From the NCBI GenBank assembly GCA_041690135.1, contig JAWLHY010000014.1, positions 142,150-206,149 of the forward strand: a stretch of DNA of 64,000 bases, in the 5' to 3' direction. The position numbers and the translations under genes were made by a program. Shown one piece after another: positions 3,039-56,952 of this stretch. Positions within the stretch are counted from its first letter, which is position 1. The number at the start of each line of letters is the position of its first letter. Under the pieces are notes generated by a model that worked only from the letters and a program-made list of their open reading frames with translations, did not search any database and had not been told where the DNA came from. The DNA is from Armatimonadota bacterium (GTDB lineage: Bacteria > Armatimonadota > SYMT01).

Positions 3039-3121
3039 GCAGTCAACTTGTGGGCGTGCGCTGCGAGAACCTTCTTTCGTCCCCGCACCTCACCACCGGA
3101 GCATCACTCGAGGACTCGCAA

Positions 3122-3436
3122 GTGAGTGGCACACTGTTTACAGAGACCGATGCGGGGATGATCTACACCGCTCCCAGGTGTGTGGTGTCACTTGGTGGTC
3201 TGTTCGTCAACTATACGCTGATCAATCGCTGCGCAGTGCCCACCTATGAAGAGACCCGGCTGTTCCTGGAGAAGGCCTTAGCCACAGGTGCTTTTACCTG
3301 GCTTGGGGACGTGAACTTCAGAATCGATGAGACATGGTTCGAGCGAGCCCATCAGTGGGACGTTGCCTGCGATGATGAATTTGAAGCCATAGAAGGGTTC
3401 CCGGTTCCGCTGCCGTTGGCGCCGGGTACCCGATAG
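3122..3436 (+). CDS. Hypothetical protein (~104 aa)
   Basis: GAGG then in-frame GTG at 3122 (alternative ATG 3158); AT-richer than its neighbours, protein-like composition; no recognisable family. Confidence 0.35.
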   Translation: MSGTLFTETDAGMIYTAPRCVVSLGGLFVNYTLINRCAVPTYEETRLFLEKALATGAFTWLGDVNFRIDETWFERAHQWDVACDDEFEAIEGFPVPLPLAPGTR

Positions 3437-12550: not shown

Positions 12551-12622
12551 ACAACCTTCAGGTCTCTTGCCGGTGCCGCGGTCCAACCGCGAGAGGGGAA
12601 TGAAATTTCCGTCGGACATCGC

Positions 12623-13180
12623 TTATCGGAATAGCCGTCGCAGAGGGATTTCCAGTCCGGGAAAGAGCGAGCTGGATAAACGTTCCTGGCCCGTGAACCG
12701 GCCCGTCTCCTCATACTGGTTGCCGCGCAGTTCCAGGGTGACCGCAGTGCGCTGTTGGGGATCCAGGATCCAGTAGTGGGGAATCCCCGCCTGCGCGTAC
12801 TCGCGGCGCTTGATGACCGTGTCCCGCTCCTCATCATCCGGCGACACGATCTCCACGGCGAGAGTAGGCCGGCCCGTCACCTGGTTGTGCTCCAGGGTGA
12901 TCCCCGCGGCCGCGTCGGCTGCGGAATAAAAGAGGAAGTCCGGGCGTCTCCCGTGGAAGGCGATCGTGGGGACATCGATATCCGCGCCCCAGAAGCCGCC
13001 CGGGCAGTTCTCCTCCAGATAGGGGTCGAGGATCGAGGAGAGGCGGGTCATGGTCCAGCCGTGCAGGGGTCGTGCGGCCACCAGTTCTTCCAAGCGGCCG
13101 TCGACGAGCTCGAAGCGGTTTTCGGTGTTGACGGTCGTGAACTCTTCAAAGGTAAGCGGGCGCTGGGCTACCTGGGACAT
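12623..13180 (-). CDS. Uma2 family (PD-(D/E)XK) endonuclease-like protein
   Basis: FELVDG, RPD, LAVEIVSP, KRREYAQAGIPHYWILDP, LFPGLEI. Confidence 0.92.
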   Translation of the reverse strand: MSQVAQRPLTFEEFTTVNTENRFELVDGRLEELVAARPLHGWTMTRLSSILDPYLEENCPGGFWGADIDVPTIAFHGRRPDFLFYSAADAAAGITLEHNQVTGRPTLAVEIVSPDDEERDTVIKRREYAQAGIPHYWILDPQQRTAVTLELRGNQYEETGRFTGQERLSSSLFPGLEIPLRRLFR

Positions 13181-13204: not shown

Positions 13205-13981
13205 CTATCGATACTCGGCCAGGGCGCTGTCCAGCTCTTCGGGCCGGAGCAGCCGGAATTTGCTTTCTCTCGGCGTGTTGCGCTCGAGCAAGCCTACCTC
13301 CACTGTTCCCTGGGCGAGCTCTTCCTTCAGCACCTGGGCCACGGTCTGGATCTCCACCTCTTCGTCTTCCTCGGTCCGCCCGAAGGAGACGCGCCGGGCG
13401 TGGATCTTGCCGGTGGCCCACGTCTCCAGCCCCAGCCGGATGGCCGACTGCCGGTCCTGCGCGCCTTCCCAGTTGGTATGGAGCAGCTCGATCATCCGGT
13501 TCTCCGCATCCAGCGACGGGCCGACCACGGAGAAGCGGTTCTCGTTCTTGAACTCCCCGTCGAAGTTGAGGGCGAAGAAGGCATCCTGCTCCTGCCGGTC
13601 TCCCAGCTCCGCGAAGAGGCCCCGGAAGACGAACGGCGCCGTGAACGGATCGCCAAACGCCTTCTTCAGTGCCGGGGACAGCACCGAACCGACCAGGCGC
13701 TGAGCGGTCACGTCGTCCGGGGAGCGCTGGAAGCCCTCCTGGTGGGCAAAATCGATGGCCGCGTTCCGCATCGTCTCGATATCGGACTGGTTGCCGATCC
13801 CGCCGAAGATAAGGCGGTCGTAGATCTCGTACACCTTGCGCTGCGTGCGCCGCAGGCTGAGGAGCAGCACCCCCTCCGGCAGGCTCAAGCCCACCACGGG
13901 GCTCCCGTCCCGCAGCCGCTCCTCGATATACTCCATCCGCGTCAGGACGGACTGGTTCCAATCATACGGTGTTAATGACAT
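13205..13981 (-). CDS. prcA: 20S proteasome alpha subunit
   Basis: GSPVVGL, RKVYEIYDRLIFGGIGNQSDIE, RSPDDVTAQRL, VEVGLLER; adjacent to the beta subunit gene. Confidence 0.9.
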   Translation of the reverse strand: MSLTPYDWNQSVLTRMEYIEERLRDGSPVVGLSLPEGVLLLSLRRTQRKVYEIYDRLIFGGIGNQSDIETMRNAAIDFAHQEGFQRSPDDVTAQRLVGSVLSPALKKAFGDPFTAPFVFRGLFAELGDRQEQDAFFALNFDGEFKNENRFSVVGPSLDAENRMIELLHTNWEGAQDRQSAIRLGLETWATGKIHARRVSFGRTEEDEEVEIQTVAQVLKEELAQGTVEVGLLERNTPRESKFRLLRPEELDSALAEYR

Positions 13982-14003: not shown

Positions 14004-14780
14004 TTATTCGCTCGGTTTGAAAGCGGCGACGATCGCCCGCATTTGCTCGGCCGGGATCTCCCGGATGCCGTCTTTCGTGATCGCCTTGGCCACGGGCAGC
14101 ACCTTGGCGAAGCCCCCGGTGGCGGCGTCCAGGTCGGCGGCGATGTCCAGGAGGATCAGGCACTCCTGCAGCGCTTCTTCCAGCGTCATCTCCCGGAACG
14201 GCTTCTTCGTGCGGATGATGTAATCGAAGGCGCCGCGGATGCGCTCGGAGCCGGAGCCCGCCGCCCCGAATTCCGCCGTCTCGAAACGGGCGCCCATCCC
14301 ATCGTAGAAGAAGATCCGGCCCTCGTTCGTCTTCGGGTCGTAGGCGCTCACGATCGGAATGAAGGCGCCGATACCCTGCATCGCCATCGGCAGGTTGCCG
14401 GCGATCGCACGAGAGACCTCGCTCACCTTGCCGTCCAGGCTCATCTCCTGGAGCTCGCGCCGGGAGTAGTACTTGAACGCGTGCTTCAGGAAGCGGACGA
14501 TCTCGATCGCCCGGGCAAAGGAGCCCGAGATGGCGATCAGCGTGAAGTCGTCCAGCGCGAGCACCTTCTCCGCGCGGTCGTACATCACCGCCATGTTGGC
14601 CGTGGCGCGGCGGTCGCCGACGTTCAGGACCCCGTCGCGGTACTTCACAGCGATGACGGTGGTGCCGTGCGTGTCGAGGGACGAGGCGGCCGCCGAGTGC
14701 GAAACGGGCGCGTCACCGACGCGCCCGAGCTCGGAGGGGATCCCTCCCACCAATTCCAGAAAATCTCCGGGTCGCGCCAT
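14004..14780 (-). CDS. prcB: 20S proteasome beta subunit with propeptide
   Basis: HG|TTVIA autoprocessing site with catalytic Thr, GDRRAT, LSLDGK-like MSLDGK, GSGS, DAATGG. Confidence 0.93.
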   Translation of the reverse strand: MARPGDFLELVGGIPSELGRVGDAPVSHSAAASSLDTHGTTVIAVKYRDGVLNVGDRRATANMAVMYDRAEKVLALDDFTLIAISGSFARAIEIVRFLKHAFKYYSRRELQEMSLDGKVSEVSRAIAGNLPMAMQGIGAFIPIVSAYDPKTNEGRIFFYDGMGARFETAEFGAAGSGSERIRGAFDYIIRTKKPFREMTLEEALQECLILLDIAADLDAATGGFAKVLPVAKAITKDGIREIPAEQMRAIVAAFKPSE

Positions 14781-14781
14781 G

Positions 14782-14970
14782 CTACTCGCCGCTCCGCTGG
14801 CGGTACCGCTTCGCCTGGTCCGGGTCCACCCGGCGCATGCGCTTCAGTAGGTCGCTCGGGTCGGGACGCTTCACGTTGGGGGCCTTCGGGCCGTCGTCGC
14901 TCCCGGGCCGCGTAATCGGGTCCTGCGGGACCGGGCGCTGTATTCTTTCTTCACCCTTGATCGGGAACAT
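14782..14970 (-). CDS. ubact: Ubiquitin-like protein UBact (62 aa; 64 aa if ATG 14976 is used)
   Basis: Ends ...DLLKRMRRVDPDQAKRYRQRSGE, matching the UBact R[ST]G[EQ] terminus; sits between dop and prcB; AGGAG is spaced correctly for ATG 14970. Confidence 0.93.
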   Translation of the reverse strand: MFPIKGEERIQRPVPQDPITRPGSDDGPKAPNVKRPDPSDLLKRMRRVDPDQAKRYRQRSGE

Positions 14971-16516
14971 CCTCATCTCCTGAATCTCCGGTTAGGACGG
15001 CTATTGCCTCCGCGACTGTTTTAGCGGACTGAAGCTGCCCAGACAACGTTAGCGCGGGATCGGCGCCGAATTCGGCCGGCAGGGGCACCCAGCGCGCCCG
15101 TGCGTCTTCTTTCAGCGCCACGCGTCCCCAGCTTACCCGCGTGATGTCCGGTGTGAACCTCCGGATCAGGTCTCCCCGCAGCGCGGCGCGCGTGTTGGCC
15201 GGCGGCTCCGTGAGAGCCGCCGCGATCTCCTCTTCCCCCGCCACCTGCACCATCTGGCCGGCCTCTTCCAGGGCGTAATAGAGCCCCTCAACGGGATCGA
15301 CGTTATGGTACTCCAGGTCCAGGCTGCGCAGGGTCGGGTCCTCCCACCAGATCCCCTCGGACTCGATGAACGTCTCCAACAACCGCCGTTTCGCCACCCA
15401 ATCGAGGCGATCCTCGGTGAGGGTGTAATCCTGCTCGAGATCATTCAGTACGCGTTCCCACTCGCGCAGCACCCAGTCGGTGTCCGCGTCCGCGCCGGCC
15501 AGCAGCTTCTGGGCGTCGCGCAGATAGATGCGCTGGAGATCGGTGGCCCGCATGGTCCGCCCGTCTTCCAACTCCAGGACCCAGCGGAAGGAGGGGTCGC
15601 GGGACAGCTTTTTGATGGCGGTTACCGGATCCCGCAGGCGGAAGAGGGGCTCCCACCCGGACTCGATCAGGCTCAGGACCAGGCTCGTCGTTCCCACTTT
15701 AAGGGCGGTGGCAAACTGGCTGAGGTTTGCGTCGCCGCAGATGACGTGCAGGCGCCGGTAGTGCCGCGAGTCCGCGTGCGCCTCGTCGCGGGTGTTGAAG
15801 AGCGGGCGGCGGGCCAGGGTGTCCACGCTGGCGATCTCTTCGAAGAAATCGGCTCGCTGCGAAAGCTGGAACTGGCACTCCTCGCGCAGCGGGCCATCCG
15901 TCTCCACTCCCGTCTTGCCCGCGCCGGCATAGAGGATGCGCGTGACCAGGAACGGCAGCATCCCGTAAAGCAGGCTTTCGAACGGCACCGTTCGGGCCAC
16001 GAGATACCCCTCGTGGCACCCGTAACTCATCCCGTGGAGATCGGAGTTGTTCTTGAAGATGCGGACCTCGCGCCCCGTTGCCTCCATACGCAGCCGCGCG
16101 CATTCATGCACGATCCGCTCGCCTGCGCGGTCGTGCGCCACGATCTGGCGCAGGGTACGGCACTCGGGCGTGGCGTACTCGGGATGGCCGTGGTCGTTAT
16201 ACAGGCGAGCGCCGTTCACCAGGGCATGGTCCGCCCGCTGCTCCTGGCTGCTGAGGTGGCTGCCGGGGCCTTCGCGGTCGTAGCGCGCGTCCTCCCGGTC
16301 GTAGTTCAGGTGGTCAACCGTGTAACCCCGCATGTCGCGACGGGGGTTTTCCGCCTGGTAATCCCAGGGCCCGGCCCATGGGCCGGGGTAGGCCTGCACC
16401 AGCAGGCGCGATTCTTCCATCAGGTCCGCGGCTCCCCGGCCCTCGACCAGGATGCCGTACTCCGTCTCGATGCCGAAAAGCCGGCTGCCGATGCACTCCG
16501 ATTGCCTGTTCTTCAA
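14951..16516 (-). CDS. dop: Depupylase/deamidase Dop (PafA2 family)
   Basis: FGIETEYG, Dop-loop WDYQAENPRRDMRG, NGARLYNDHGHPEYATPEC, SQRADFFE, RRLHVICGDAN. Confidence 0.92.
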   Translation of the reverse strand: MKNRQSECIGSRLFGIETEYGILVEGRGAADLMEESRLLVQAYPGPWAGPWDYQAENPRRDMRGYTVDHLNYDREDARYDREGPGSHLSSQEQRADHALVNGARLYNDHGHPEYATPECRTLRQIVAHDRAGERIVHECARLRMEATGREVRIFKNNSDLHGMSYGCHEGYLVARTVPFESLLYGMLPFLVTRILYAGAGKTGVETDGPLREECQFQLSQRADFFEEIASVDTLARRPLFNTRDEAHADSRHYRRLHVICGDANLSQFATALKVGTTSLVLSLIESGWEPLFRLRDPVTAIKKLSRDPSFRWVLELEDGRTMRATDLQRIYLRDAQKLLAGADADTDWVLREWERVLNDLEQDYTLTEDRLDWVAKRRLLETFIESEGIWWEDPTLRSLDLEYHNVDPVEGLYYALEEAGQMVQVAGEEEIAAALTEPPANTRAALRGDLIRRFTPDITRVSWGRVALKEDARARWVPLPAEFGADPALTLSGQLQSAKTVAEAIAVLTGDSGDEDVPDQG

Positions 16517-20314: not shown

Positions 20315-22063
20315 CTAGATCACGTTGCGGCGGGCCACCTGCTGGCTGCGGTCCTGCCGGATCGGCTTCAACGTGACGACGTTCTCCGGCTCATAGTCGA
20401 GTAGCTTGAGCCAGTCTTCCTGGGTGTCCGTCTTCGGGAAGATCTCGTTTTCCTTGTACTCCACCCGGATCGCCCGCTGCAGGTCTTCCAGGCCCACGCC
20501 CTGCTCGAAATCCTTGGTCGCGATGGCGCGCTTGATGGCGTAGTCCTTGGCCCGCTCCACCACGCTGCGGATCAGCGCTCCGGAGAGGAGGTCCTTCCAG
20601 TAGAGACGCTCCACGCCGCCGTTCCGGAGGTGCACCTCCAGGAATTCCGTGTCCTCGTTCCGGCGGAAGAGGAACTGGAGCGCTCCCTCGATGAGGGCTT
20701 CCCGTGCCCCCTCCACGCCTCCGTGTTCGGACAGGGTCGCGGGGTCGTACGGAATGCCCGCGTGCAGGTAGATGCCGAGGATCTCCCGCGCCGCCTTCCG
20801 GTCGGGGCGGACGACCTTTACCTTGCGGTCGATGCGCTCCGGGCGCAGGATCGCCGGGTCGATGTAGTCCGGGCGGTTGGATGTGAGCATCACCACCACG
20901 TTCTCCATCGATACGAGGCCGTCCATCTCCGCCGCGAACTGCGGGACCACCGTGTTCGCGATGTTGAGGTACCGTCCGCTGCTCCGGGTCCGCAGGATCG
21001 CCTCCGCCTCGTCGATGAAGATGAAGACGAGCCGCCCTTCTTTCGCCTTCTCGCGGGCCTGGGCGAAGATCTCCCGCACGATGCGCTCGCTCTCGCCAAG
21101 CCACATGTTCAGGATCTTGGGGCCGTTGATGAACATGAAGTACTCCTCCACGTCCCGGCCGACCCGCTCGCTGTACTCCCGCGTGAGGTTGTAGGCGGTC
21201 GCCTTGCCGATGAGCGTCTTGCCGCAGCCCGGCGGGCCGTACAGCAAGATGCCTTTCAGCGGGCGCTTTTCGAATTTCGCGTAGAGATCGGGATAAAGCA
21301 GCGGGTGTTCGATCGCATCCCGGATGACCTGGATCGCCTCTTCCTGGCCGCCCACGCGGTCCCACGGGATCTCCGGCACCTCTTCCAGGTAGTAGTCGCG
21401 CACGTCCTGCTGCGGGAAGTGCTCCAGCGCCACCCGGAAGTTCGGCTCCACGCGGACCTCGTCCCCCTGCTTGAGCTTCGCTTCCCCCAGGGGCGCCGAG
21501 CGAAGCACAACCCGGCTGGACTGGCCCGCGGCATCCATCGAGACGCGGAGCCGCTCGCCCAGCACCTCGGCGATCTTGACGATGGCGCCGTTCGGCCAGG
21601 GCCCCAGGTCGCCCACGATGGCGTAGGCCTCGTTGAGCTTCACGCGCGTGCCCACCTGGAGGTCCGGGTTCTCCAGCTTCGGATCGAGGCTGCAAACGAA
21701 CTCCCCATCGCCCATGGCGACGCTGGCGTAGCCGTCCGGGGTTTCGCCCAGGTAGGTGCCCACCCGGTTGGCGGGCGACGTCAGCTTCTGGTAGGCCTCT
21801 TCGTACTCGGCCAGGAGCTTCTGCGCCTCTTCGAACTGCGCCTCGTCCGTCTCCAGTTGGTGGCGGAGCAGGAGCAGGTAATTGGTGAGGCGCGGGTCCT
21901 CGCCGTTCACGTGCGCCAGGATCCGGTCCACCAGCGCCAGCGCGCGGTAGGTCGTATCCGGCGCTCGCGGACCGTCTTCCTCTCGCCCATAGCCGCCCCG
22001 GCGCTCCTCGCGTGGGTCGAAAGATCTATCTTCTCGTTTAGACAACGTCAAATTCCTGGTCAA
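20315..22063 (-). CDS. arc: Proteasome-associated AAA+ ATPase ARC/Mpa
   Basis: N-terminal coiled coil, OB domains, EEVPEIPWDRVGG, Walker A GPPGCGKT, KGP-like NGPKILNMWLGESER, Walker B FIFIDE, SRH DPAILRPERIDRK. The true start may be TTG 22045. Confidence 0.93.
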   Translation of the reverse strand: MTRNLTLSKREDRSFDPREERRGGYGREEDGPRAPDTTYRALALVDRILAHVNGEDPRLTNYLLLLRHQLETDEAQFEEAQKLLAEYEEAYQKLTSPANRVGTYLGETPDGYASVAMGDGEFVCSLDPKLENPDLQVGTRVKLNEAYAIVGDLGPWPNGAIVKIAEVLGERLRVSMDAAGQSSRVVLRSAPLGEAKLKQGDEVRVEPNFRVALEHFPQQDVRDYYLEEVPEIPWDRVGGQEEAIQVIRDAIEHPLLYPDLYAKFEKRPLKGILLYGPPGCGKTLIGKATAYNLTREYSERVGRDVEEYFMFINGPKILNMWLGESERIVREIFAQAREKAKEGRLVFIFIDEAEAILRTRSSGRYLNIANTVVPQFAAEMDGLVSMENVVVMLTSNRPDYIDPAILRPERIDRKVKVVRPDRKAAREILGIYLHAGIPYDPATLSEHGGVEGAREALIEGALQFLFRRNEDTEFLEVHLRNGGVERLYWKDLLSGALIRSVVERAKDYAIKRAIATKDFEQGVGLEDLQRAIRVEYKENEIFPKTDTQEDWLKLLDYEPENVVTLKPIRQDRSQQVARRNVI

Positions 22064-47405: not shown

Positions 47406-47966
47406 ATGGCTGAACCTGCAATCACTTTCCGCCCGATGACCTTCGAAAAGGCTGCCCGCCTCGACCCGGATCAGGAGGCCGGCGACATCGTTCAGGGAAG
47501 GTGGACACCCGTGTCGAGGGACACCTGGAAGCACGCACTGATCGTAGGCAATGCCTATGCGCTCCTTCGACAGTACTGTCGTGAGAACCGGGAATGGATC
47601 GCGGGTGTCGGTGATCCGGGAACCAAGCTCACTAGAAATCCCGATACGCTTCGCGGGCCGGACGTGGGCGTCATCCGATCCGAGCGCCTTCCCACCGGAA
47701 AGGGCGCACAGGGCTGGCTGGATGGCGCCCCCGATCTGGCGGTGGAAGTGACGAGCGATAACCAGACCGCGTCCGAATTGGCGCGGAAGGGGCTCGAGTA
47801 CCTGGCGGCGGGAGGCAAGATGGTCTGGGTAGTCGACCCGGACGCACAACTCGTGCTGGTGCTCACGGCCCCGAACCACCTGCAGATCTACGGCGTGGCC
47901 GACACGCTCGACGCCGGGGATGTGCTGCCCGGCTTCACCTGTCCGGTCTCCGAGTTTTTCGAGTAG
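47406..47966 (+). CDS. Uma2 family endonuclease-like protein
   Basis: DTLRGPDV, APDLAVEVTS, KGLEYLAAG..MVWVVDP, VLPGF. Confidence 0.9.
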   Translation: MAEPAITFRPMTFEKAARLDPDQEAGDIVQGRWTPVSRDTWKHALIVGNAYALLRQYCRENREWIAGVGDPGTKLTRNPDTLRGPDVGVIRSERLPTGKGAQGWLDGAPDLAVEVTSDNQTASELARKGLEYLAAGGKMVWVVDPDAQLVLVLTAPNHLQIYGVADTLDAGDVLPGFTCPVSEFFE

Positions 47967-48064
47967 TCCCCCGCTATACTGGGGATAAGCTCGTAACCTG
48001 AAACGGCGGCCGCCGTCGGGGCGTCCTACTGAGAGTGCGTCACTTCCGAAGGAGCCTTGGATTC

Positions 48065-50248
48065 ATGCCCGTACCGAAGAAACACCGGTCTCACTCGATC
48101 CCCCGGTCCCAGCCGGGTCTCCCTGCCCCGACTTCGGAAACGGGAGGCGCCACCCGCCTCCAGGCTCCCGACATCGCCTCGCCGCGACTCCGCGCGCTCC
48201 TTGCCGCCACCCTGGCCCTGGGAATGCTTGGGGCCGCCGGTATTGGCTCCCGGCCCACGAGCGCCCAGACCCGCGCCGAATTTGTCCCCACCTTCTCCAC
48301 CAACACGCGGGTCAAGCAGCAGTTGGAGCGCCTCGACCGCCTCGCGGCGCAGAAGATGTGGGATGAGTGGCTGGCCGGCTATCAGCAACTCGTGGACGAC
48401 CCCCGCGACCTGGTGATCGAGCGCGACGGCGAATTCCTGGACGGCGTTCGGTTCCGGGCGCACCAGATGCTGGCGGCCCAGCCCGCCGCCGTACGCCAGA
48501 AATACCGCACCCTATTCGATCCCACCGCGCGCAAGCTCTACGACGAAGCGGTGACGAAGAACGATGGCGCGGCGATGCGGGACGTTTACAGCCGTTATCG
48601 CTTCAGCACTTACGGCCCGCGCGCTCTCCTCTGGATCGCCAACCGGTCCCTGGACGAGGGGCGCCCGGAACTGGCGCGGGTCGCCTACAGCCGCCTTTCC
48701 CGGGAGCCGGGCGTTACGGTGCAGACTCTGCTGCGCTACGCCCTGGCGGCGGATGCGGCGGGCAAGCCGGCGGAAGCGACCGCCGTTCTCGACCGTATTC
48801 GGAAAGAGTTCGCCGCCCAGCCGACGCGGCTGGCCGGAAAGGACCTGACGGGCGGCGCCGCCGCGGATGCCGTGGCCAAAGCGCTCCGGAAACCCGGAGC
48901 CGGTGCGAGCTCGGTCTGGCCCTCCTTCGCTGGCGCCGGCGGAGACCGCCGGATGGCCGGGCAGGTCACCGGCGCGCAAAAGAAGCTGTGGGAGTTTGCG
49001 CAGTCCACCAAGCCCGAGGGCAACTCGGGGAACTACCGCGGGCGGGTGCTCGGGTTCAGCAGCCTCGGGAGCGGCCGTTTCCAGTTTTTGAGCTTCCCCG
49101 TGGTGGGTGGAGACCGCGTCTGGATCCAGGGTCCGCAGAATCTCACGGCTGTCAACCTGGACACCGGCGAGCCGGCCTGGGACCAGCAGGATTTCAGCAT
49201 CAGCCGGGACGAGAGCGGGCTTCAGAACACCGATCCGCGCCTGGGCGGCATCTACTACCGATCGGGTCGCGCGGTCCAAACGGCTCCCACGCTGGACGGG
49301 CATGTGCTCCTGGGCCGTTTCCCGCTCAGCTCGTCGGATCGCGACACCAATCGCTGGCCGTCAGACTTCTCGATCGGCGCCTTCGATGCGCGCTCCGGTA
49401 CACCGCTCTGGCAGCGGGTCGCGGGCGGGGAGCCCCGGGGCAGCTTCTATAACCTGCCTACTCTTTCGGCCAACATGGTCCTGGGCGGCGTGACCACCTT
49501 CAAGGGCGGCATCACGGAGTACAACGCGGTCGCCCTGGACGCCGCCACCGGCGAGGAGTTGTGGTCTACCTACCTCGGCGCCGGCAGCGATCCCCTCGGC
49601 ATCGTCGACGGCTCCCCGGCTGCCGTCAAAGACGGCGTCGTGTGGATCGAAAGCTCGCTTTACACGCTCAACATGCTCGACCTGATCACCGGGGAACTCC
49701 GGCAGATCTACCGCTACGATCCCGGCAAGCGGACCACCTTCCGGGGCGGGTTCGACAGCAGCCCGATGGTGCCGCACGAGCCCGTGAGCCTGATCGCGGC
49801 GGCGCAGGGTCCGGTCGTCTTCTGCCCGCGCTGGGGAACCGACGTCGTTGCACTGGACTCCGCGACTGGCCGGCTGCTCTGGTCCTCGCCTAAGGCGCCC
49901 GGCCAGTCTTCCATGGGCTCCCTGTTCGCGGTGGACGACAAGCTCGCCTACGTTTGCGGCGACCATCTCCAGGCCCTCAACCTGGAAGACGGCGCCCGCG
50001 AGTGGCATTGGGAGCCGGAGCAAGCCTCCAGCCGCCACATGGGCTTCGCCGCCCTCGCGGGAGACCGGATCTACTTCCCCGTGGAAGGGAAGATCCACGT
50101 CCGCGCCGCCGCCGACGGCCGCGCCCTGGAGACCCTCGACCTGGTGGACGCCCTCACCGACCAGCCCTACTTCACCTCCCTGGTCGTGCACGGCAACAAG
50201 CTCATCGTCTCCACCAAGGACAAGGTAGTCGCCTTCGGCCCGAAGTGA
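48065..50248 (+). CDS. Secreted TPR-like + PQQ-type beta-propeller (BamB-like) protein
   Basis: GAAGGAG RBS; signal peptide; repeats AVNLDTGEPAW, AFDARSGTPLW, ALDAATGEELW, ALDSATGRLLW, ALNLEDGAREW. Confidence 0.85.
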   Translation: MPVPKKHRSHSIPRSQPGLPAPTSETGGATRLQAPDIASPRLRALLAATLALGMLGAAGIGSRPTSAQTRAEFVPTFSTNTRVKQQLERLDRLAAQKMWDEWLAGYQQLVDDPRDLVIERDGEFLDGVRFRAHQMLAAQPAAVRQKYRTLFDPTARKLYDEAVTKNDGAAMRDVYSRYRFSTYGPRALLWIANRSLDEGRPELARVAYSRLSREPGVTVQTLLRYALAADAAGKPAEATAVLDRIRKEFAAQPTRLAGKDLTGGAAADAVAKALRKPGAGASSVWPSFAGAGGDRRMAGQVTGAQKKLWEFAQSTKPEGNSGNYRGRVLGFSSLGSGRFQFLSFPVVGGDRVWIQGPQNLTAVNLDTGEPAWDQQDFSISRDESGLQNTDPRLGGIYYRSGRAVQTAPTLDGHVLLGRFPLSSSDRDTNRWPSDFSIGAFDARSGTPLWQRVAGGEPRGSFYNLPTLSANMVLGGVTTFKGGITEYNAVALDAATGEELWSTYLGAGSDPLGIVDGSPAAVKDGVVWIESSLYTLNMLDLITGELRQIYRYDPGKRTTFRGGFDSSPMVPHEPVSLIAAAQGPVVFCPRWGTDVVALDSATGRLLWSSPKAPGQSSMGSLFAVDDKLAYVCGDHLQALNLEDGAREWHWEPEQASSRHMGFAALAGDRIYFPVEGKIHVRAAADGRALETLDLVDALTDQPYFTSLVVHGNKLIVSTKDKVVAFGPK

Positions 50249-50323
50249 AGTTGCCGTTCCCCGCGGGTTGCCCGTAACATAGGAATCAGAACACTCCACT
50301 GGATGCAGGAAGAGGAGAGTGCG

Positions 50324-50479
50324 ATGCAGACCCTGGAAAAGCCCCGCCCGGAAGCCGCGCAGGCTCAAAACGTTGAAGAGCGCCCGCTGGACCATATCCC
50401 CGACAAGGTTTCCGATCTGCTGGCGCAGCTCGATGTCAAGAACCTGGCCGAAGCGAACCCCCACGTCAGCGGGGAATAA
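50324..50479 (+). CDS. Unannotated Pup/UBact-like small modifier (51 aa, C-terminal SGE)
   Basis: GAGGAG 6 nt upstream of the ATG; MQTLEKPRPEAAQAQNVEERPLDHIPDKVSDLLAQLDVKNLAEANPHVSGE*; disordered N-terminus, SDLL helix and G-E terminus as in Pup/UBact; directly upstream of a PafA-like gene. Confidence 0.75.
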   Translation: MQTLEKPRPEAAQAQNVEERPLDHIPDKVSDLLAQLDVKNLAEANPHVSGE

Positions 50480-50511
50480 TCCTGTCACCACCGGCAGCAC
50501 TGCCGTGAAAC

Positions 50512-50547
50512 CGAGCGGGAGGGGGACGCGCGTCCCCCTCCCGCTCG
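50512..50547. promoter_or_regulatory. Perfect 36-nt palindrome between the modifier and ligase genes
   Basis: CGAGCGGGAGGGGGACGC|GCGTCCCCCTCCCGCTCG; ends 10 nt before ATG 50558. Confidence 0.7.
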
Positions 50548-50557
50548 TTGCAACTGT

Positions 50558-52057
50558 ATGACCGCTGAGCCAATCTGCAGCCTGGAGCTGGAGTTTTTCG
50601 TCCTCGGCCGTACCTGTCCCGAAGTCCTCCGCTTCCTCCGCGACCGGAATCCCATCGTCACCTATTCCGGCAAGGGGAGTGGGTTCTGGTTGGAACTGCC
50701 GGGGTGCGGAGTGCCGGCCTGGTTCAAGATCTCCGGGGACGGTCCCTACTGTTTCGAAGACCTCGTGTTCGAAGCGGCCCTGCCGGAGACCAACGCCCCC
50801 ACCGCGGCGTACCTGGTGCAGCACTCGCTCCTCCCTTGGTTGGCGCGGCTGGAACGGGAGATGGGGGAGAACGGCGCCCCGGTCCGCTTCATGACGGGCC
50901 CGGACCTCCACGGGCATCGCTCCGCCTTCCAGGTGAACCTCGTCCTCGATCGAGTCGAGGATATCCGCGCCTACTATGCGGCCCTGGCGCCCCTGGTGCT
51001 CACGCTTAGCTGCGTGACGGGCCCTGGTGGGCCCGTTCCTGGTGAGGGATACGTGCTGGCGCCGCGCTTGAACACCCACTGCCGGCCCGGCCATTACCTG
51101 GGAAGCGACGCCTCGCTCCGCCATGCGCCCGTGGCCTATCCCCGCTGGCGCGACTATGGCGCGGGGCACCGGGCCCATTTCAGCCTGGAGTACTCCCGTC
51201 TACCGGGCGCGATGCTGCTGGTCGCGGGTGTCCTTTCGCTGGCTACCCGGGCGTATGAAATTGCCCCCAAGCAGTTCGACCTTCGCTTTCTCGACGAGCC
51301 GATCGCGGCGGCACGGGGGCTCAACCGTCTGGGTGAGCCTCGCGTGCTGGTGGAAGCCGGCATGGAGGAGCACCGCTGGTCCGGCCTCGAGCTCCAGGAG
51401 GCCTTTCTCGAAAGGATCATCGAGCCCGTCCTTTCCGGGGTCGCCGCGGCGCCGGAGTGGACGGAGCCGTTCCTGGAGTACTGGCGCGCGGCGATCGCGG
51501 CCCAGCGGGAGGGCAGGCCTTGCCCGGCGTCTGACTTCAGCACCAAGCACCCATACCTGGAAACCCTCGTCTCTCGGGCGGGCCTGCAGTTCGGCTCGCG
51601 GGAGTGCCAGGCCGCCTACGCCCTCTGCGCCTCTCTGCTGCACGCCCAGGTCGATCTGGATACCTTCTTCAGCCGTCCGGCGTGCACGCTGCCGCTCGAT
51701 GACCGGAGAGCCTCTCTACGGCGTCACCTGGAGACGGTCCCGCCGGAACGCCTCCGGGAGATCTATCTCGGCGGCCTGCGGGAAGCCCTGCTCTTTGAGG
51801 TGGCCTGGCAACGGATCGGGCCGGGAAGCGCCGCCGATCAGTTGACGCCCGATCCGGCCGAAGCCCTTCTCCTGGGGAGCCGCCCGTATCTCGCGCCCCG
51901 CGCCGCCGCACGCGCGGAGCTCTTCCAGGCCCATCGCGAGGACCTCTGGATGGCCGCCGATTGGGACCGCATCGAAACCCTCGACAGTTTCCTCTACTGT
52001 CGCGATCCACGCGACGCACATTTCTCCGACGATCCGGCCGCGGGTCCGGTATACTGA
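50558..52057 (+). CDS. Highly divergent PafA/Dop-family (carboxylate-amine ligase) protein
   Basis: Colinear motif matches to PafA at 11078: SLELEF/GIETEF, FKISGD/RLYID, FEAALPE/EEYATAE, DLHGHRSAFQVN/DHFGGHTFGCHEN, LAPLVLT...GPG/LLPFLVT...GVG, LAPRL/LSQRA, HRAH/HRLH, EPIAA/DPIET, LELQ/VDLQ, DFSTK/DWVAK, PRAAAR/TRAAGR, ADWD/IDWD, RDP/RNP. Confidence 0.75.
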   Translation: MTAEPICSLELEFFVLGRTCPEVLRFLRDRNPIVTYSGKGSGFWLELPGCGVPAWFKISGDGPYCFEDLVFEAALPETNAPTAAYLVQHSLLPWLARLEREMGENGAPVRFMTGPDLHGHRSAFQVNLVLDRVEDIRAYYAALAPLVLTLSCVTGPGGPVPGEGYVLAPRLNTHCRPGHYLGSDASLRHAPVAYPRWRDYGAGHRAHFSLEYSRLPGAMLLVAGVLSLATRAYEIAPKQFDLRFLDEPIAAARGLNRLGEPRVLVEAGMEEHRWSGLELQEAFLERIIEPVLSGVAAAPEWTEPFLEYWRAAIAAQREGRPCPASDFSTKHPYLETLVSRAGLQFGSRECQAAYALCASLLHAQVDLDTFFSRPACTLPLDDRRASLRRHLETVPPERLREIYLGGLREALLFEVAWQRIGPGSAADQLTPDPAEALLLGSRPYLAPRAAARAELFQAHREDLWMAADWDRIETLDSFLYCRDPRDAHFSDDPAAGPVY

Positions 52058-52062
52058 GGTCT

Positions 52063-52353
52063 GTGAACTACCTGTTAATCGAAATCATCCACCGGGGCAC
52101 GGAGGTCATCAGCCTCGTCGTGATCGCGTCGATCATCCTCTCGATGATTGCCCAGGTCACCCACGCCCGCTGGATCCACCATCCCGCCGTCCGCTTCGTC
52201 GTCGCCGCCGGTGATGCCATCTGCGCGCCTTTCCGGGAACTGATGCAGCGCCTCGGCCTGCCCACTGCGCCGCTCGATTTCTCGCCGATGGTCGCCCTGT
52301 TTGCCATTCGCATGATCAGCGGCTTTCTGATCCGCATCCTGATCGCGAGCTAA
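52063..52353 (+). CDS. yggT: YggT family membrane protein
   Basis: GTG 5 nt after the ligase stop; IASIILSM...HPAVRFV...APFR...LDFSPMVA. Confidence 0.85.
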   Translation: MNYLLIEIIHRGTEVISLVVIASIILSMIAQVTHARWIHHPAVRFVVAAGDAICAPFRELMQRLGLPTAPLDFSPMVALFAIRMISGFLIRILIAS

Positions 52354-52862: not shown

Positions 52863-55457
52863 ATGGAATTCCGGCCCAGGCGAACGGCCCACCGGGTTGC
52901 GGTGGGAATGGCGGTCTTACTCTCCGGCGCGTCGGTCGCGCTGGAGTTGGGCATGGGGATCTGCGCCCAGACCTTTTTCGATCCGCTTCCGACCCCTCTC
53001 TACACCGCCGCTTATCTTTTCCTGGCCGCTATGCTGGCGCTCAACGAGTCGGTGCTGGCGCAGGCGGACCGGCGGATCGGCGAGCGCGTTTGGGAACAGC
53101 GCCAGTCGCTCCCGCTTCCACCCGAGAAGCGCACGCCCCTGGAACTGGCCCGCATCGGCACCGGAGCCGCGCTCGCCGTGGCGGCCGTGTATGCGGTCAT
53201 GTTCCTCCCGATCATGCCGATCTCGGCCATCGGGGTCCTGGTATGGGGGATGGGGCTCTGTGGCTTAAGCCCCTTCATCAACCTCTCCCTGCTCCTGGCG
53301 CAGTCCCGCGCTCTGGGCCACCGCTGGCGCCTCCTGGAACTGGGCACCCCGCTCCGGCCCCAGGCTGCCGCTACCTGTGCCGCGCTCGCTGTTATCTGCG
53401 TGCTGGTGGGGCGGCCGCTCCTCGTGGGTTATCACATCGAGCAGGCGCTGGCGAACCCCGGTCGCCGCGAGCAGGCGGTCCAGCGCCTCCGGTGGATGGC
53501 GGCCGAGTCGGAGGTGCTGCGTCTCTGCTACGAGACCCGCTCGCCTCTACTCGAAAGTGCCGGCCGCTCTCTCTGGACCGCCGGGGTCGATCGGGAGAAC
53601 CTGCCGGATGTCAACGACGAGGCCCGCAAGCTTTACTACTTGCTCACCGGCAAGCCCTTTGAGACCGCGGATGCCTCGCGCCTGACCCGCACGCGGATGT
53701 GGGCCCGCTTCGACGACCCGGTGGTAAACCAGCAGGGTGGGGAACTGGTCGGGCGAGCGGTGAAGGGGCTGAGCCTGAGCTCTTCTCGCCTGGATGGGGT
53801 GGTGGACCCGCGTACGGAAACCGCCTACAGCGAGTGGACGCTGGTGTTCCGGAACGCCACCTCCGTTCCCCAGGAAGCCCGCGCCGAGATCCTTCTACCA
53901 GAGGGAGGCGTGGTAGATAGGGTCTCCCTCTGGATCAGTGGGGAGGAGCGCCCCGCCGCCTTCGGGCCGCGCGACGTGGTCCGGCAGGCCTACCAGGAAG
54001 TAGCCGTGGTGCAGCAGCGCGACCCGCTTCTGGTCACGGCAAAGGATGCCGGCCACGTCCTCGCCCAGTGCTTCCCGGTCCCCGCCTCCGGGGAGATGAA
54101 GATCCGCCTCGGCATGACCGCGCCGCTGGTCTGGGCCGATCCCCGGAACCCTCGTCTCACCTACGCGCTGCCGTCGTTCCAACATGTCAACTTCACGCTT
54201 CCGGCGGACGCGACGCACCAGGTCTGGCTGGAGGGGCACTGGAGGGAGCGTTACGGGCGATTGGCACGGGAGGCCGGTGCGGAGTGGCAATTGCTCACTG
54301 GACCGGCGCCCGCGGGCCAACCGGCAGACGAGCGGACCCACACGGCACGGATGAAGCTCCCGGCGGACCAACTCTTCCAGCGCCACTCGCTGGCGGTGGC
54401 GGGAGGCGCCCCTCCGGCTCCGGGAGACGCGTTGGGAAACGGTCTCGTACGCCGGACCTCTCCGTTCCCTCGCGCTACCCGGCCGGTGGACCTGCTCGTC
54501 CTGCTCAGCCCCACGCTCGACATGCGGAACGCCGTGACCCCGGCCCACCGCGAGGCGCTTCGCCGGGCGCTGGCGGAACTTCCCTCCGGCTCCCACGTCC
54601 GGTTTGTGGACGTGCGGGAAGCGGTCCTGCCGGGCAGCCGCCGGGGCACCTCCTGGCTCGACGTTTCCCAGGTGGAGGAGGCCGATCGCTGGTGGGAGTC
54701 CCGGGACTACCATGGGGGCGCCGAACCGGCCCGTGCTTTGGAATGGGCGTGGGATGAAGCCCTGGGGCGGACCCATCCCACCGCCGTGCTCTGGCTGCAC
54801 GGCCCCACCCCGGAAGAATTCAAAGACGCGGAGCAGCTCGTCGCCAATTACCGCCGCCGCCCCGAAGGCCCGGTCCTGGTAGGCGTTCGCTTCCGGCCCG
54901 GTCCGGACGCCCTGATGCGGGAGCTGGCCGGAAACCCGCGGATCTTCGCCCGCGGTGACGGCGATCAGCCCGAGAGCCTGGCCGCCGCGGTCCGCCTCGC
55001 CGCCGCGGCTCTCGACACGTCGGAGGGGCTGAAAGGCTATGCGGAAGGCGTTACCACCGTGCCGCTGGGTGGACGCGAGCCGGCCCTCAACGGGACCTAC
55101 GTCGTCGGTGGAGCCCGCAGTGGAGCCGTTCCCGTGGCCGGGGCCCCCGGTCGCGTGGCGCGCCTGGCCGCCAACTCGCATGTGCTGGCGCCGTGGTATG
55201 CCGGTCGGCGTGAGGGACGTGAGATCCAGGCCGCGCAGACGCTCGCCATCTCCCGGCGGCTGGTCACGCCCATGTCCGGGGCGGTGGTGCTGGAGACCCA
55301 GGAGCAGTACCGGCGGCACAACTTGAGCGATGCTGCGCCGCAGTCCACCATTCCCAGCGTGCCGGAGCCGGGCACCGTTGCCCTGCTGCTCGTGGGCACC
55401 GTGGTAGCGCTGGCCGCGGCCTATCGGGGGCGAAGGAGATCCGCAGGTGCAGGCTAA
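52863..55457 (+). CDS. Membrane-anchored VIT-domain protein with C-terminal PEP-CTERM sorting signal
   Basis: N-terminal TM helices; VIT-like core AYSEWTLVFRN...QEARAEILLPEGGVVDRVSLWISGEER...RDPLLV...QCFPVP; LVTPMSGAVVLET; VPEPG + TM + RGRRR. Confidence 0.88.
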   Translation: MEFRPRRTAHRVAVGMAVLLSGASVALELGMGICAQTFFDPLPTPLYTAAYLFLAAMLALNESVLAQADRRIGERVWEQRQSLPLPPEKRTPLELARIGTGAALAVAAVYAVMFLPIMPISAIGVLVWGMGLCGLSPFINLSLLLAQSRALGHRWRLLELGTPLRPQAAATCAALAVICVLVGRPLLVGYHIEQALANPGRREQAVQRLRWMAAESEVLRLCYETRSPLLESAGRSLWTAGVDRENLPDVNDEARKLYYLLTGKPFETADASRLTRTRMWARFDDPVVNQQGGELVGRAVKGLSLSSSRLDGVVDPRTETAYSEWTLVFRNATSVPQEARAEILLPEGGVVDRVSLWISGEERPAAFGPRDVVRQAYQEVAVVQQRDPLLVTAKDAGHVLAQCFPVPASGEMKIRLGMTAPLVWADPRNPRLTYALPSFQHVNFTLPADATHQVWLEGHWRERYGRLAREAGAEWQLLTGPAPAGQPADERTHTARMKLPADQLFQRHSLAVAGGAPPAPGDALGNGLVRRTSPFPRATRPVDLLVLLSPTLDMRNAVTPAHREALRRALAELPSGSHVRFVDVREAVLPGSRRGTSWLDVSQVEEADRWWESRDYHGGAEPARALEWAWDEALGRTHPTAVLWLHGPTPEEFKDAEQLVANYRRRPEGPVLVGVRFRPGPDALMRELAGNPRIFARGDGDQPESLAAAVRLAAAALDTSEGLKGYAEGVTTVPLGGREPALNGTYVVGGARSGAVPVAGAPGRVARLAANSHVLAPWYAGRREGREIQAAQTLAISRRLVTPMSGAVVLETQEQYRRHNLSDAAPQSTIPSVPEPGTVALLLVGTVVALAAAYRGRRRSAGAG

Positions 55458-56952
55458 AGCCTCGGGCCTCTCCACGATGGCCGCGCCGATGCCGGCGCTC
55501 CGGGCGCGCCTCGCCGTGGTACCGCTCGCGGGCTGGGTCGCCCTCGCCCTGTGGCCGGTGTGGGCCTATCTCCACCGGGCCTACACCAGCCCCGGCGCGG
55601 ATCCGTCTCCCGCGCTGGTGCTGCTCGGCGCCGTCGGTTGGGCCGCCTGGGTGGCCCGTTCGACCGCACGGGAGGAGAAGGAAGGGGCTCCCGCCCACGC
55701 GGTAGGTTCGGAGTGGGCTCGCACCCTCCTGGTGCTTGCGCTCTACGCGGCAGCCTATCCCTGGGCGCCGCCCCTGGCGCGGGCTCTGCTGGGGTTGGCC
55801 GCCCTGGGCCTCTCGCTGCGGGCCCTCCCCGGCGTGCCCGCGAGCGGAGGGTGGGGGCTGGCGGCGCTGGTCGTGCTGGCGGCCCCGGCGGTCGACACGC
55901 TCAGCTTCTTCCTGGGCGGCCCCATGCGCTCCGCCGCGGCCGAGGTGGCGGTGTGGGCCCTCGGCGCCCTGGGCAACTCCGCGCGCGCCGAGGCCGGAGA
56001 CGCGGCCTTCTGGGTCAACGGCCGCCTCTTCAGCGTCGATGCGCCCTGTTCCGGCGTCAACGGGCTCTGGACCGGCCTCGTCCTCGCGGCGGCGGTGGCG
56101 ACGTGGCGGCGCCTCTCCTTCTGGTCCACGGCCCTGCTGCTCTCAGCATCGGTGCTGTTGTGCGTTCCCGCCAACGGTTGGCGCGCGGCCACCCTCGTCT
56201 ACCTGGAGGTGCTCGCCCCGCAGTTCGGCCCCCTCGCTGGCGACCTCAGCCACTCCCTGGTGGGCCTCCTCATCTTCGCCCTCACCACCGGCGTCCTCGT
56301 GGGGTTGTCCCGTCCCTTGTCCCCCGGAGCAAGTTGTGATCGTGATCCTAAGCCACTCTCTTCTCCATCTCCGTCATCCCACGCTCCCAATCGTAATCCA
56401 AATCCTTATCTTTATCGTTACCCTTATCGTCATCTCTATCCTTATCCACTCATACTGGCCGCTTTCGTCCCTCTCCTGCCCCGTTCCGCTCCGGCGACCC
56501 CCGCGGCCCAGGCGTTCCCTGGCTGGCCGCGAGAGTGGATGGGCCGCCCCCTGCGACCCCTCCCAGCCTCTGAGATGGACCGCCGCTGGGCCGCGCTGAC
56601 TCCCGGACCGCTCACACGCTTTGCTCTGCCCGACGGCTCCGAGTTGCTGCTGCGCTGGGTGGACCGGCCCACGCGCGCCCTCCACTCGCCGGAAGATTGC
56701 TACCGTGGCCTGGGCGCCACGCTCACTCCCCGGCCACCAGTGCGGGCTGCCGCACCCGGCACTTCGGGTCCGGTCTTGTGGCGGAGGTTTCGCGTCTCCC
56801 GGCAGGGACGGAGCTGGGAAGTTCGCTCTCTGATCCGCACCGAAAGCGGCGCCACCTACTCCGACCCGGCCTGGTGGTGGTGGCGCGTGGCGGGCCCCGG
56901 GGCGCAGGATCGAGGCCCCTGGTGGGCCATCACGCTCCAGACTCCGCTATGA
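55447..56952 (+). CDS. Dedicated exosortase (XrtN/O/Q-like) with a C-terminal soluble domain
   Basis: VDAPCSG catalytic Cys, ANGWR Arg, SHSLVG His; C-terminal FPGWP...LRWVDRPTRALHSPEDCYRG; overlaps the PEP-CTERM gene. Confidence 0.85.
   Translation: MQAKASGLSTMAAPMPALRARLAVVPLAGWVALALWPVWAYLHRAYTSPGADPSPALVLLGAVGWAAWVARSTAREEKEGAPAHAVGSEWARTLLVLALYAAAYPWAPPLARALLGLAALGLSLRALPGVPASGGWGLAALVVLAAPAVDTLSFFLGGPMRSAAAEVAVWALGALGNSARAEAGDAAFWVNGRLFSVDAPCSGVNGLWTGLVLAAAVATWRRLSFWSTALLLSASVLLCVPANGWRAATLVYLEVLAPQFGPLAGDLSHSLVGLLIFALTTGVLVGLSRPLSPGASCDRDPKPLSSPSPSSHAPNRNPNPYLYRYPYRHLYPYPLILAAFVPLLPRSAPATPAAQAFPGWPREWMGRPLRPLPASEMDRRWAALTPGPLTRFALPDGSELLLRWVDRPTRALHSPEDCYRGLGATLTPRPPVRAAAPGTSGPVLWRRFRVSRQGRSWEVRSLIRTESGATYSDPAWWWWRVAGPGAQDRGPWWAITLQTPL

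Follow-up and report, generated by a model that had tools for sequence, protein, structure and literature searches.

A two-gene locus of an Armatimonadota bacterium: a small Gly-Glu protein and a deep-branching PafA/Dop relative as a candidate modifier-ligase pair apart from the UBact-proteasome operon

Does a bacterium that already encodes a ubiquitin-like tagging system carry a second one, with a tag and a ligase of its own? The question is raised by a locus in a 64,000-nucleotide stretch of DNA from an Armatimonadota bacterium (GenBank assembly GCA_041690135.1, contig JAWLHY010000014.1, positions 142,150 to 206,149), referred to below as the window, whose own numbering is used throughout. 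In the window, a gene for a 51-residue protein stands upstream of a gene for a 499-residue protein (Table 1), well away from a canonical operon for UBact, Dop, PafA and the proteasome. To our knowledge, bacteria tag proteins with this kind of chemistry by pupylation only, and what is known of it comprises a single ligase, a single tag and a single route to the proteasome. An initial annotation, made by a model from the letters alone, read the two genes as a Pup/UBact-like modifier and a very divergent PafA-family ligase. Having followed up this proposal computationally, we lean, by a modest degree, towards a two-gene cassette that encodes a Pup-like modifier and its own ligase, separate from the UBact-Dop-PafA-proteasome operon.

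The first sign of the kinship of the 499-residue protein was a profile match to P0015, an ordinary PafA/Dop protein (PF03136, 487 bits). In hhalign comparisons, a first profile of three sequences gave 44%; a profile of 12 sequences, A3, gave 97% (E 1.2e-10) against the Dop/PafA pair of the same genome and 98.4% (E 4.7e-15) against 32 PafA/Dop sequences, the latter over 422 columns that set residues 2-485 against 9-483. Searched against the PDB sequences at E<=10, A3 matched Dop (9CKU, 4B0R, 5LRT) and PafA (4B0T, 4BJR) with E-values of 5e-8 to 1e-6; the sole other match was one unrelated chain (E 0.32), and the same search returned no glutamine synthetase and no glutamate-cysteine ligase (GCL). 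The C-terminal part is unique to pupylation enzymes, according to an excerpt of PMC8599861. Since the match covers this part, the kinship is with PafA/Dop and not merely with the glutamine synthetase superfamily. The curated models gave partial matches: the PF03136 cut-off (25 bits) was passed by 3 of the 9 new-family proteins scanned (36-41.6 bits, model positions ~240-372 only), and at E<=0.01 TIGR03686 (PafA) was matched by 5 and TIGR03688 (Dop) by 3 of 12 members. On the genome, PF03136 found only the two canonical genes, the 499-residue gene not being among them. By itself the protein had no PADLOC or PDB-sequence match, and a known defense-system protein was rejected, PADLOC having given no hits for the five proteins scanned. 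The codon-position guanine-plus-cytosine (GC) fractions of its open reading frame (ORF), 0.72/0.50/0.82, are like those of the neighboring genes and the genome. These comparisons support the classification of the 499-residue protein as a genuine member of the PafA/Dop superfamily, complete in length though very divergent. Enzymes of this family have a fold like that of glutamine synthetase, with a cradle of beta-sheet. The alignment with PafA that the initial annotation had made by eye was borne out by both profile methods (hhalign and the PDB profile search).

The active site was then compared by mapping residues to the numbering of Acidothermus Dop through a profile alignment with the PDB Dop and PafA sequences. 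The legend of Fig. 6 in PMC8599861 gives six Mg ligands of this Dop: Glu8, Glu10, Tyr92, Glu99, His155 and His241. Four of the six are identical in the 499-residue protein (E10 = Glu8, E12 = Glu10, E72 = Glu99, H207 = His241), and further equivalents are E77 (Glu104), R170 (Arg205), R196 (Arg227) and R205 (Arg239). At the level of motifs, GhExE reads SLELEF, its first acid being Glu in eight and Asp in one of the nine rows that cover it and its second being Glu in all nine. Also kept are both Glu residues of PEYxTPE (E72/E77), the Arg of SQR (R170), the Arg of NTR, and the Arg and His of RLH (R205/H207), and W469 matches the C-terminal Trp of PafA, which had been noticed earlier as a terminal DW. 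R205 and H207 are invariant in 12/12 rows, and about 20 further positions are nearly invariant although the members are only 28-46% identical, which points to purifying selection on a defined site. The distance from the second GhExE Glu to the PEY Glu is 57-68 residues in the new family (9/9), 67 in PafA-like sequences (all 10 rows with the pattern; 2 rows failed) and 93-96 in Dop-like sequences (11/11). Since this spacing is short, as in PafA, the new family has no Dop-loop, a segment of about 35-40 residues that in Dop separates the GhExE strand from the strand of the Asp. The residue matches proposed by eye thus stood for E10/E12, E72/E77, R170, R205/H207, W469 and the substitution of Gln (Q125) for the CHEN His. 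FKISGD, which had been equated with RLYxD, lies in a segment on whose placement two profile alignments disagree.

The family is small. A word-indexed search returned three proteins related to the 499-residue protein, and an exhaustive HMMER profile search of 1.84 billion representatives returned 15 at E<=0.001, among them a repetitive 1411-residue protein, taken as a false hit, and P0015. All 10 clusters that were looked up have a single member. PF03136 is common in the phylum (40/61 genomes), and a true member by profile A3 was found in 1 of 41 relatives, in 1 of 401 genomes sampled across the phylum and in 1 of 8 from the class. Another 22 genomes matched A3 at E<=1e-5 with 25-70 bits, and those cross-checked were ordinary PafA/Dop genes or belonged to the second systems described below. 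Plasmids and phages gave no tblastn match, and profile and sequence scans of genome and metagenome contigs found no locus for the distant homologues. A quick maximum-likelihood tree was built from 40 rows (8 full-length new-family proteins, 11 Dop-like, 12 PafA-like, 6 second-system enzymes, 2 solo paralogues and P0015; the fragments P0005, P0006, P0010 and P0012, 19 of 29 Dop-like loci and L071 were left out). In this tree the new family forms one clan (Shimodaira-Hasegawa-like approximate likelihood ratio test, 100), outside the PafA and Dop clades and about 3.3 substitutions per site from all else. Because long-branch effects are possible, we claim nothing on its sister group. The initial annotation had wanted the novelty of the clade checked; by these results, the clade is separate, with its own clan, and extremely rare. 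As a side observation, P0014, a family fragment of 399 residues, runs about 290 residues past the end of the other members, and some members may have a C-terminal extension or a fusion to a downstream gene.

The small gene upstream is equally real. Its ATG is preceded, at a distance of 6 nucleotides, by the Shine-Dalgarno-like GAGGAG, and an alternative in-frame ATG at 50303 (58 residues) has no such site; the strong ribosome-binding site reported for this ORF was confirmed. The protein ends in ...NPHVSGE (DKVSDLLAQLDVKNLAEANPHVSGE) and has an isoelectric point of 4.76, a net charge of -5.3, three Lys, no Cys and no repeated core; a hydrophobic-moment scan peaked at residues 19-27, with a second peak at 38, and the codon-position GC of the ORF is 0.77/0.33/0.75. 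Pup, for comparison, has a region of two helices and then an extended C-terminal tail that goes into the ligase. The ORF had been described as unannotated. This is true at most of the ORF track then in use, since the exact 51-residue sequence, P0019, is already in a public protein collection (an NCBI record, from a contig of 235,742 bases), which shows that some pipeline had called it. Among 5.8 billion clusters searched, its sole relative is P0018, which also has 51 residues, differs at 2 of them (A11V and Q35R; 96% identity) and keeps the ...HVSGE end. P0018 was seen on two contigs, the longest of 7243 bases, and the single contig of P0002, a relative of the 499-residue protein, is likewise of 7243 bases; from the equal lengths we infer that P0018 and P0002 share one contig. 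The candidate tag is better conserved than the enzyme, with 96% identity to P0018 compared with 83% to P0002.

Further copies were recovered from four public sequencing runs (X1-X4) of four studies, each of which gave one short contig covering the region of the small ORF only; the lack of contigs from the body of the ligase gene is no evidence of its absence, and the small word shares of the runs (0.05-0.12) are likewise no evidence for habitat. The contigs of X1 (50278-50539) and X2 (50308-50481) had no differences from the window. The contig of X3 (50314-50514, 201 bases) had 3 differences, and that of X4 (50357-50581) had 9 and spans the small ORF, a hairpin and the first 24 bases of the ligase gene. 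Two differences are listed inside the small ORF, A>G at 50452 and A>G at 50476; both are third-position and synonymous (Glu43 and the terminal Glu51), and 50452 is a second codon position in an overlapping 80-codon frame. Given the relative P0018 and the synonymous-only differences in the runs, the small ORF is a conserved protein-coding gene, and a chance ORF was rejected on the same two grounds. Given that the X4 contig continues into the ligase gene, the order of small gene, hairpin and enzyme gene is kept in a relative. Of the four runs, only X3 has a recorded kind of library, a metatranscriptome; its contig is at most a hint of transcription, as DNA can occur in such libraries. It was also observed that, over a 2.3-kb stretch, well-matching contigs (174-262 bases) of the four runs occur only around the small ORF (50278-50581), those of X1 and X2 being identical to the window. 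Such clustering would mean either that this gene is far better conserved than the ligase gene or that a short RNA is abundant.

Given that both genes are real, we examined how closely they belong together. The gene upstream of the pair, for a protein with TPR and a PQQ-type beta-propeller, has orthologues in 6/6 other genomes of the family. In one of these, G003, of the same family and another genus, the propeller gene is followed after 34 nucleotides by yggT, with neither gene of the pair between them. In none of the other five family genomes did the 5 kb downstream of the propeller gene show a yggT, and PF02325 had no match at all in four of them. The genes on either side of the 1.8-kb pair thus adjoin each other in a sister genus, and this supports the view that the pair comes and goes as one block while its flanks are conserved. 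Given the rarity of the family, the pair was more likely inserted here than lost in G003. The Gly-Glu end is itself an uncommon one: of the 8410 ORFs of at least 200 residues in the genome, 105 (1.25%) end in G[EQ] and 7 in SGE. In an excerpt of Iyer et al. 2008 (PMC2588565), Pup is described as a protein of 50-90 residues with a C-terminal G[EQ] whose gene neighbors the PafA gene wherever PafA occurs. The small protein of the window has 51 residues, ends in ...SGE and is encoded, in the same orientation, 78 nucleotides upstream of a PafA-family gene. For homologues of the enzyme, the initial annotation had expected an upstream G[EQ] peptide as well; one was found in one close relative, in which P0018 keeps SGE; the comparison is limited to that relative.

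A strong hairpin lies between the two genes. Its stem begins 32 nucleotides after the stop of the small ORF, and the enzyme ORF starts 11 nucleotides past the stem. Folding of 50480-50565 gave -48.2 kcal/mol (z -6.3; 0 of 200 shuffles were as good), and the X4 differences inside the hairpin (50528 and 50529) are both in the loop. A scan for T-tailed terminators did not list it, as it has no T tail. A genomic repeat element was rejected, as no second copy was found in the 9.1-Mb genome, and so was a known RNA family, no Rfam family coming near its gathering score.

The canonical system of the same genome offers the nearest comparison. An operon about 35 kb off had been reported, and it is there, with UBact ~35.3 kb upstream of the pair. 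Its two enzyme genes were named Dop-like and PafA-like on the basis of their motifs (NDHGHPEY and IDAVGDHEEY, respectively) and of the spacing from GhExE to PEY (94 and 67 residues). The motifs agree with what Table 1 of PMC7947786 gives for the positions flanking the catalytic Asp, as far as the excerpt of that source goes. The contrast in charge that had been noted between the two small proteins was reproduced, UBact having an isoelectric point of 10.5 and a net charge of +5.5. The tail ...RMKRVDPxxAxRYRQRSG[EQ] is present in 29 of 30 Dop-adjacent loci of the phylum (L001, L004-L032). As an observation on UBact itself, its C-terminus is Glu in 24 loci and Gln in 5, which indicates that ready-to-ligate and deamidation-requiring forms of UBact occur within one phylum.

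Second loci of the PafA/Dop family exist elsewhere in the phylum. G012, G026 and G318 have, in addition to a UBact operon, a locus with two PafA/Dop-family genes (L061-L063), and in 3/3 a small ORF lies between them, ending in ...QRGGQ, ...QQGGE or ...QQSGE. The first gene of these loci encodes a PafA/Dop-like protein of 553-621 residues without the GhExE start (PF03136 matches from model position 69), and the last encodes one of 544-695 residues with GhETEYA, which in G318 has a long C-terminal extension. These loci look like a Pup-type second system, and we know of no description of them. The UBact model had no match at E<=1 in the small ORFs of G012 and G318, the two searched, and hhalign gave 0.1% between the 51-residue protein and the second-system small ORFs. 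Several genomes of the phylum hold more than one PafA-type locus, and this multiplicity may be commoner than the searchable literature suggests. In a separate observation, ORF 1808-3322 (-) of L059 (G031:C2:702500-708500) is a solo gene for a very divergent PafA/Dop-like protein of 504 residues with 94 bits to PF03136 over model positions 138-429; it has the longest branch of the tree (3.08), and no G[EQ]-ending ORF was found within 6 kb of it.

Collectively, how far does this evidence carry a modifier-ligase pair? A tag and its ligase are the most economical explanation, because an enzyme of the PafA/Dop type, with most ligands kept and a PafA-like spacing, has a Gly-Glu neighbor with which it is gained or lost. 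The 51-residue acidic protein would be translated from its strong ribosome-binding site, and the hairpin might limit read-through into the ligase gene or protect the 3' end of a short mRNA, so that tag would exceed enzyme. The enzyme, with a PafA/Dop architecture including the C-terminal domain, would bind ATP-Mg via E10/E12, E72, Q125 and H207, and R170 and R205 would lie at the phosphates. It would phosphorylate the gamma-carboxylate of Glu51 of the tag, and an amine would attack the acyl-phosphate to form an isopeptide bond; by analogy with PafA, this amine would most likely be a lysine side chain of a target protein. As the tag ends in Glu, no deamidase would be needed. Since no gene for a proteasome, an ATPase or Dop is attached, the tag may act outside the canonical degradation route, or it may borrow that route.

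Several results weigh against this reading. The enzyme gene has no visible ribosome-binding site, and its product alone gave no Pfam or NCBIfam match at E<=1. Within the active site, CHEN reads FQVN, so that His155 is Q125; this metal-binding position is covered by 11 rows, 10 with Gln and one, P0011, with His, and the Glu that follows the CHEN His is Val, Phe or Ile in the family. The RLYxD strand (Tyr92 and Asp94 of Dop) has no secure counterpart, D61 and E67/D68 being rival candidates. The alignment of A3 with the pair of the genome lays FKISGDGPYCFED on ALVNGARLYND, with the Asp falling at F66/E67, and the alignment with the 32 PafA/Dop sequences deletes NGARLYNDHGHP; D61 (of GDGP) is invariant in 9 covering rows, and E67/D68 are variable and mostly acidic. 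Since CHEN is changed and the Asp strand is unrecognizable, there is room for lost activity or for another acceptor, be it a small amine or a lysine of the same molecule. No similarity of the small protein to UBact or Pup could be detected (no BLASTP alignment, no PF20513 match, hhalign 0.3% against UBact), and the parallel with UBact that had been drawn earlier comes down to the tetrapeptide SDLL and the terminal SGE. It matched no Pfam, NCBIfam or PADLOC family; at E<=10, Pfam gave only NepR (E 0.05), judged to be chance, and no Pup (PF05639). The pairing has been seen in this genome and in near relatives only (P0018 and run X4), and two other solo divergent PafA-like genes, G031:C2 (94 bits) and G062:C34 (242 bits), have no adjacent G[EQ] ORF (0/2). 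Given that all three second loci have such an ORF and neither solo gene does, a G[EQ] neighbor is frequent but not universal. The interpretation of the initial annotation thus survives in the kinship of the enzyme, its stand-alone setting, a conserved Gly-Glu gene, the behavior of the two genes as a unit and their rarity, and falls short on homology to UBact/Pup and on the unannotated status of the small ORF.

Three other explanations were weighed. The two genes could be neighbors but not enzyme and substrate, the 499-residue protein being an extra ligase or hydrolase of UBact or a gamma-glutamyl ligase of a metabolite, and the small protein a regulator, an inhibitor or an unrelated product. 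The small protein's lack of similarity to known tags and the two solo genes would fit this. We nevertheless regard it as unlikely: the single gene directly upstream would end in Gly-Glu by chance in about 1% of cases, gain or loss affects both genes at once, and the small protein is more conserved than the enzyme. The enzyme's neighbor is also acidic where UBact is basic, and the missing Dop-loop speaks against a Dop-like role, though the loop is not essential for Dop activity according to an excerpt of PMC7947786.

Alternatively, the peptide could be a substrate whose terminal Glu the enzyme joins to an amine of non-protein origin (amino acid, polyamine or other metabolite) or to one of the peptide's own three Lys, the product being, instead of a protein tag, a scaffold peptide or one akin to a ribosomally synthesized and post-translationally modified peptide (RiPP). 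A strong hairpin between a short precursor gene and an enzyme gene is a known layout of RiPP operons, and such a hairpin is found here; the peptide has three Lys, and the active site departs from that of PafA/Dop in CHEN and near the catalytic Asp, as would suit another acceptor. The chemistry itself belongs to the superfamily, as glutamine synthetase and its GCS1/GCS2 relatives ligate small amines to glutamate gamma-carboxylates (excerpt of PMC2588565). Set against these points, there are two genes only, and no protease, transporter or tailoring enzyme travels along, the flanks occurring without the pair in G003; the peptide has neither Cys nor a repeated core, the enzyme keeps the C-terminal part specific to pupylation enzymes, and protein-tagging enzymes were its closest relatives in every search. 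We consider this explanation doubtful as well. A catalytically dead relic or pseudo-enzyme, with the pair lacking conjugation activity, would account for the Gln and Val in CHEN and for an extremely rare, patchy family with long branches, but it is quite improbable in view of an intact 499-codon frame with genome-typical codon-position GC, the invariant R205/H207 with some 20 more near-invariant positions that indicate purifying selection, and one member (P0011) that keeps His at the Gln position.

The modifier-ligase reading also has a bolder form, which we put forward tentatively and hold to have somewhat less than an even chance. In this form, prokaryotic ubiquitin-like protein tags would comprise, besides Pup and UBact, a third family founded by the 51-residue protein, with its own deep-branching ligase, independent of the proteasome and insulated from UBact by opposite charge. 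The two genes would move as a self-contained cassette thinly scattered among uncultured bacteria.

The surroundings of the pair (Table 1) agree with the stand-alone setting described at the outset, as no dop, prc or arc gene lies beside the 499-residue gene. The yggT-family gene downstream holds the only yggT match in the genome. It is probably a neighbor and not part of the system; as a system component it was rejected because it is the genome's only yggT and is present without the pair in G003. Beyond these genes, a Uma2-family gene (putative restriction endonuclease fold; 47406-47966, +; PF05685, E 3.4e-23) lies 2.4 kb upstream of the pair. On the other side, 52863-55457 (+) encodes an 864-residue VIT-domain protein with a PEP-CTERM tail (TIGR04477, 'sorted by XrtN', 95 bits, below cut-off), and 55447-56952 (+), which overlaps it slightly, encodes an exosortase closest to XrtQ (86 bits, below cut-off). 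The two may be an undescribed pair of exosortase and substrate.

Table 1. Coordinates of the candidate pair, of its surroundings, of the canonical operon in the window, and of second loci in other genomes of the phylum
Feature	Coordinates	Strand	Remarks
Small-protein gene	50324..50479	+	51 residues, acidic, candidate Pup-like modifier; ATG 50324, TAA 50479
Shine-Dalgarno-like GAGGAG	50312..50317	+	6 nucleotides 5' of the small-ORF ATG; read from sequence
Hairpin	50512..50547	+	Perfect 16-bp stem, 4-nucleotide loop, no T run; candidate attenuator or 3'-end stabilizer of small-gene mRNA
499-residue protein gene	50558..52057	+	Deep-branching PafA/Dop-family carboxylate-amine ligase homologue, without Dop-loop; candidate ligase
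yggT-family membrane protein gene	52063..52353	+	96 codons, 5 nucleotides past the enzyme stop; PF02325 E 9.3e-12
TPR + PQQ-type beta-propeller protein gene	48035-50248		Upstream of the pair
UBact	14782-14976	-	PF20513 E 8.9e-22, 77 bits; ends RQRSGE
AAA ATPase gene	20315-22063	-	Canonical operon
Dop-like gene	14951-16516	-	Canonical operon
prcB	14004-14780	-	Canonical operon
prcA	13205-13981	-	Canonical operon
Uma2-family gene	12623-13180	-	Between prcA and the PafA-like gene; putative restriction endonuclease fold
PafA-like gene	11078-12619	-	Canonical operon
Second locus L061	G012:C18:1-6500		
Second locus L062	G026:C49:21000-27500		
Second locus L063	G318:C582:5000-12000		

If a second orthogonal pair does exist in one cell, it would show that the PafA scaffold has been put to use again with a different tag, that tagging of this kind does not have to lead to a proteasome, and that the specificity of tag and ligase can be insulated within one cytoplasm. 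PafA and Pup are already used for proximity tagging, and a minimal two-gene pair without cross-reaction to Pup or UBact would be useful for the same purpose. We found no description of this clade or of its small protein in the searchable literature, the coverage of which is incomplete.

The pair was also compared with its closest counterparts. With the second systems of G012, G026 and G318 it has in common an additional tagging-type locus beside a UBact operon, small ORFs ending there in GGQ, GGE or SGE, and the second-system enzyme of G318 is the best match of the new family's profile outside the family (70.5 bits). In those systems, however, two enzyme genes flank the tag, both well above the PF03136 cut-off (227-332 bits), whereas the locus of the window has one enzyme, and the second-system enzymes form other clans of the tree than the new family. 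With UBact it shares a small protein that ends in SGE and is encoded beside a PafA/Dop-family gene. UBact, though, is basic, matches PF20513 and is nearly invariant across the phylum, whereas the new protein is acidic, does not match PF20513, has V and not R before SGE and occurs in 1 of the 401 phylum genomes sampled.

The likeness to PafA/Dop of Actinobacteria and Nitrospirae consists of a profile homology that is almost full-length, including the C-terminal part, and of the key motifs kept; like PafA in particular, the new enzyme has no Dop-loop by spacing and a gene for a small Gly-Glu protein directly beside its own. It differs in falling, by itself, below every curated cut-off, in forming a separate clan ~3.3 substitutions per site away, in FQVN for CHEN and an unrecognizable RLYxD strand, and in having no gene for a deamidase/depupylase, proteasome or ATPase beside it.

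The proteasome-unlinked pairs of Pup and Pup ligase in Plesiocystis and Rhodopirellula, described in an excerpt of Iyer, Burroughs and Aravind 2008 (PMC2588565), come closest among published cases. According to that excerpt, four transmembrane segments are inserted in their ligases. No such insertion is present in the new family, the top 19-residue hydropathy being 1.2-1.8 and located at a conserved helix, and a membrane-anchored ligase of the Rhodopirellula type was rejected for want of a hydrophobic insertion. Their Pups were found by Pup profile searches, as the excerpt has it, and the 51-residue protein was not found in this way; unlike their membrane-protein genes, the yggT next to the new pair exists independently of it. 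The likeness lies in the arrangement itself: as far as the excerpt describes them, these loci, like that of the window, have a Pup-like gene by a single PafA-family gene, no proteasome genes and an adjoining gene for a membrane protein.

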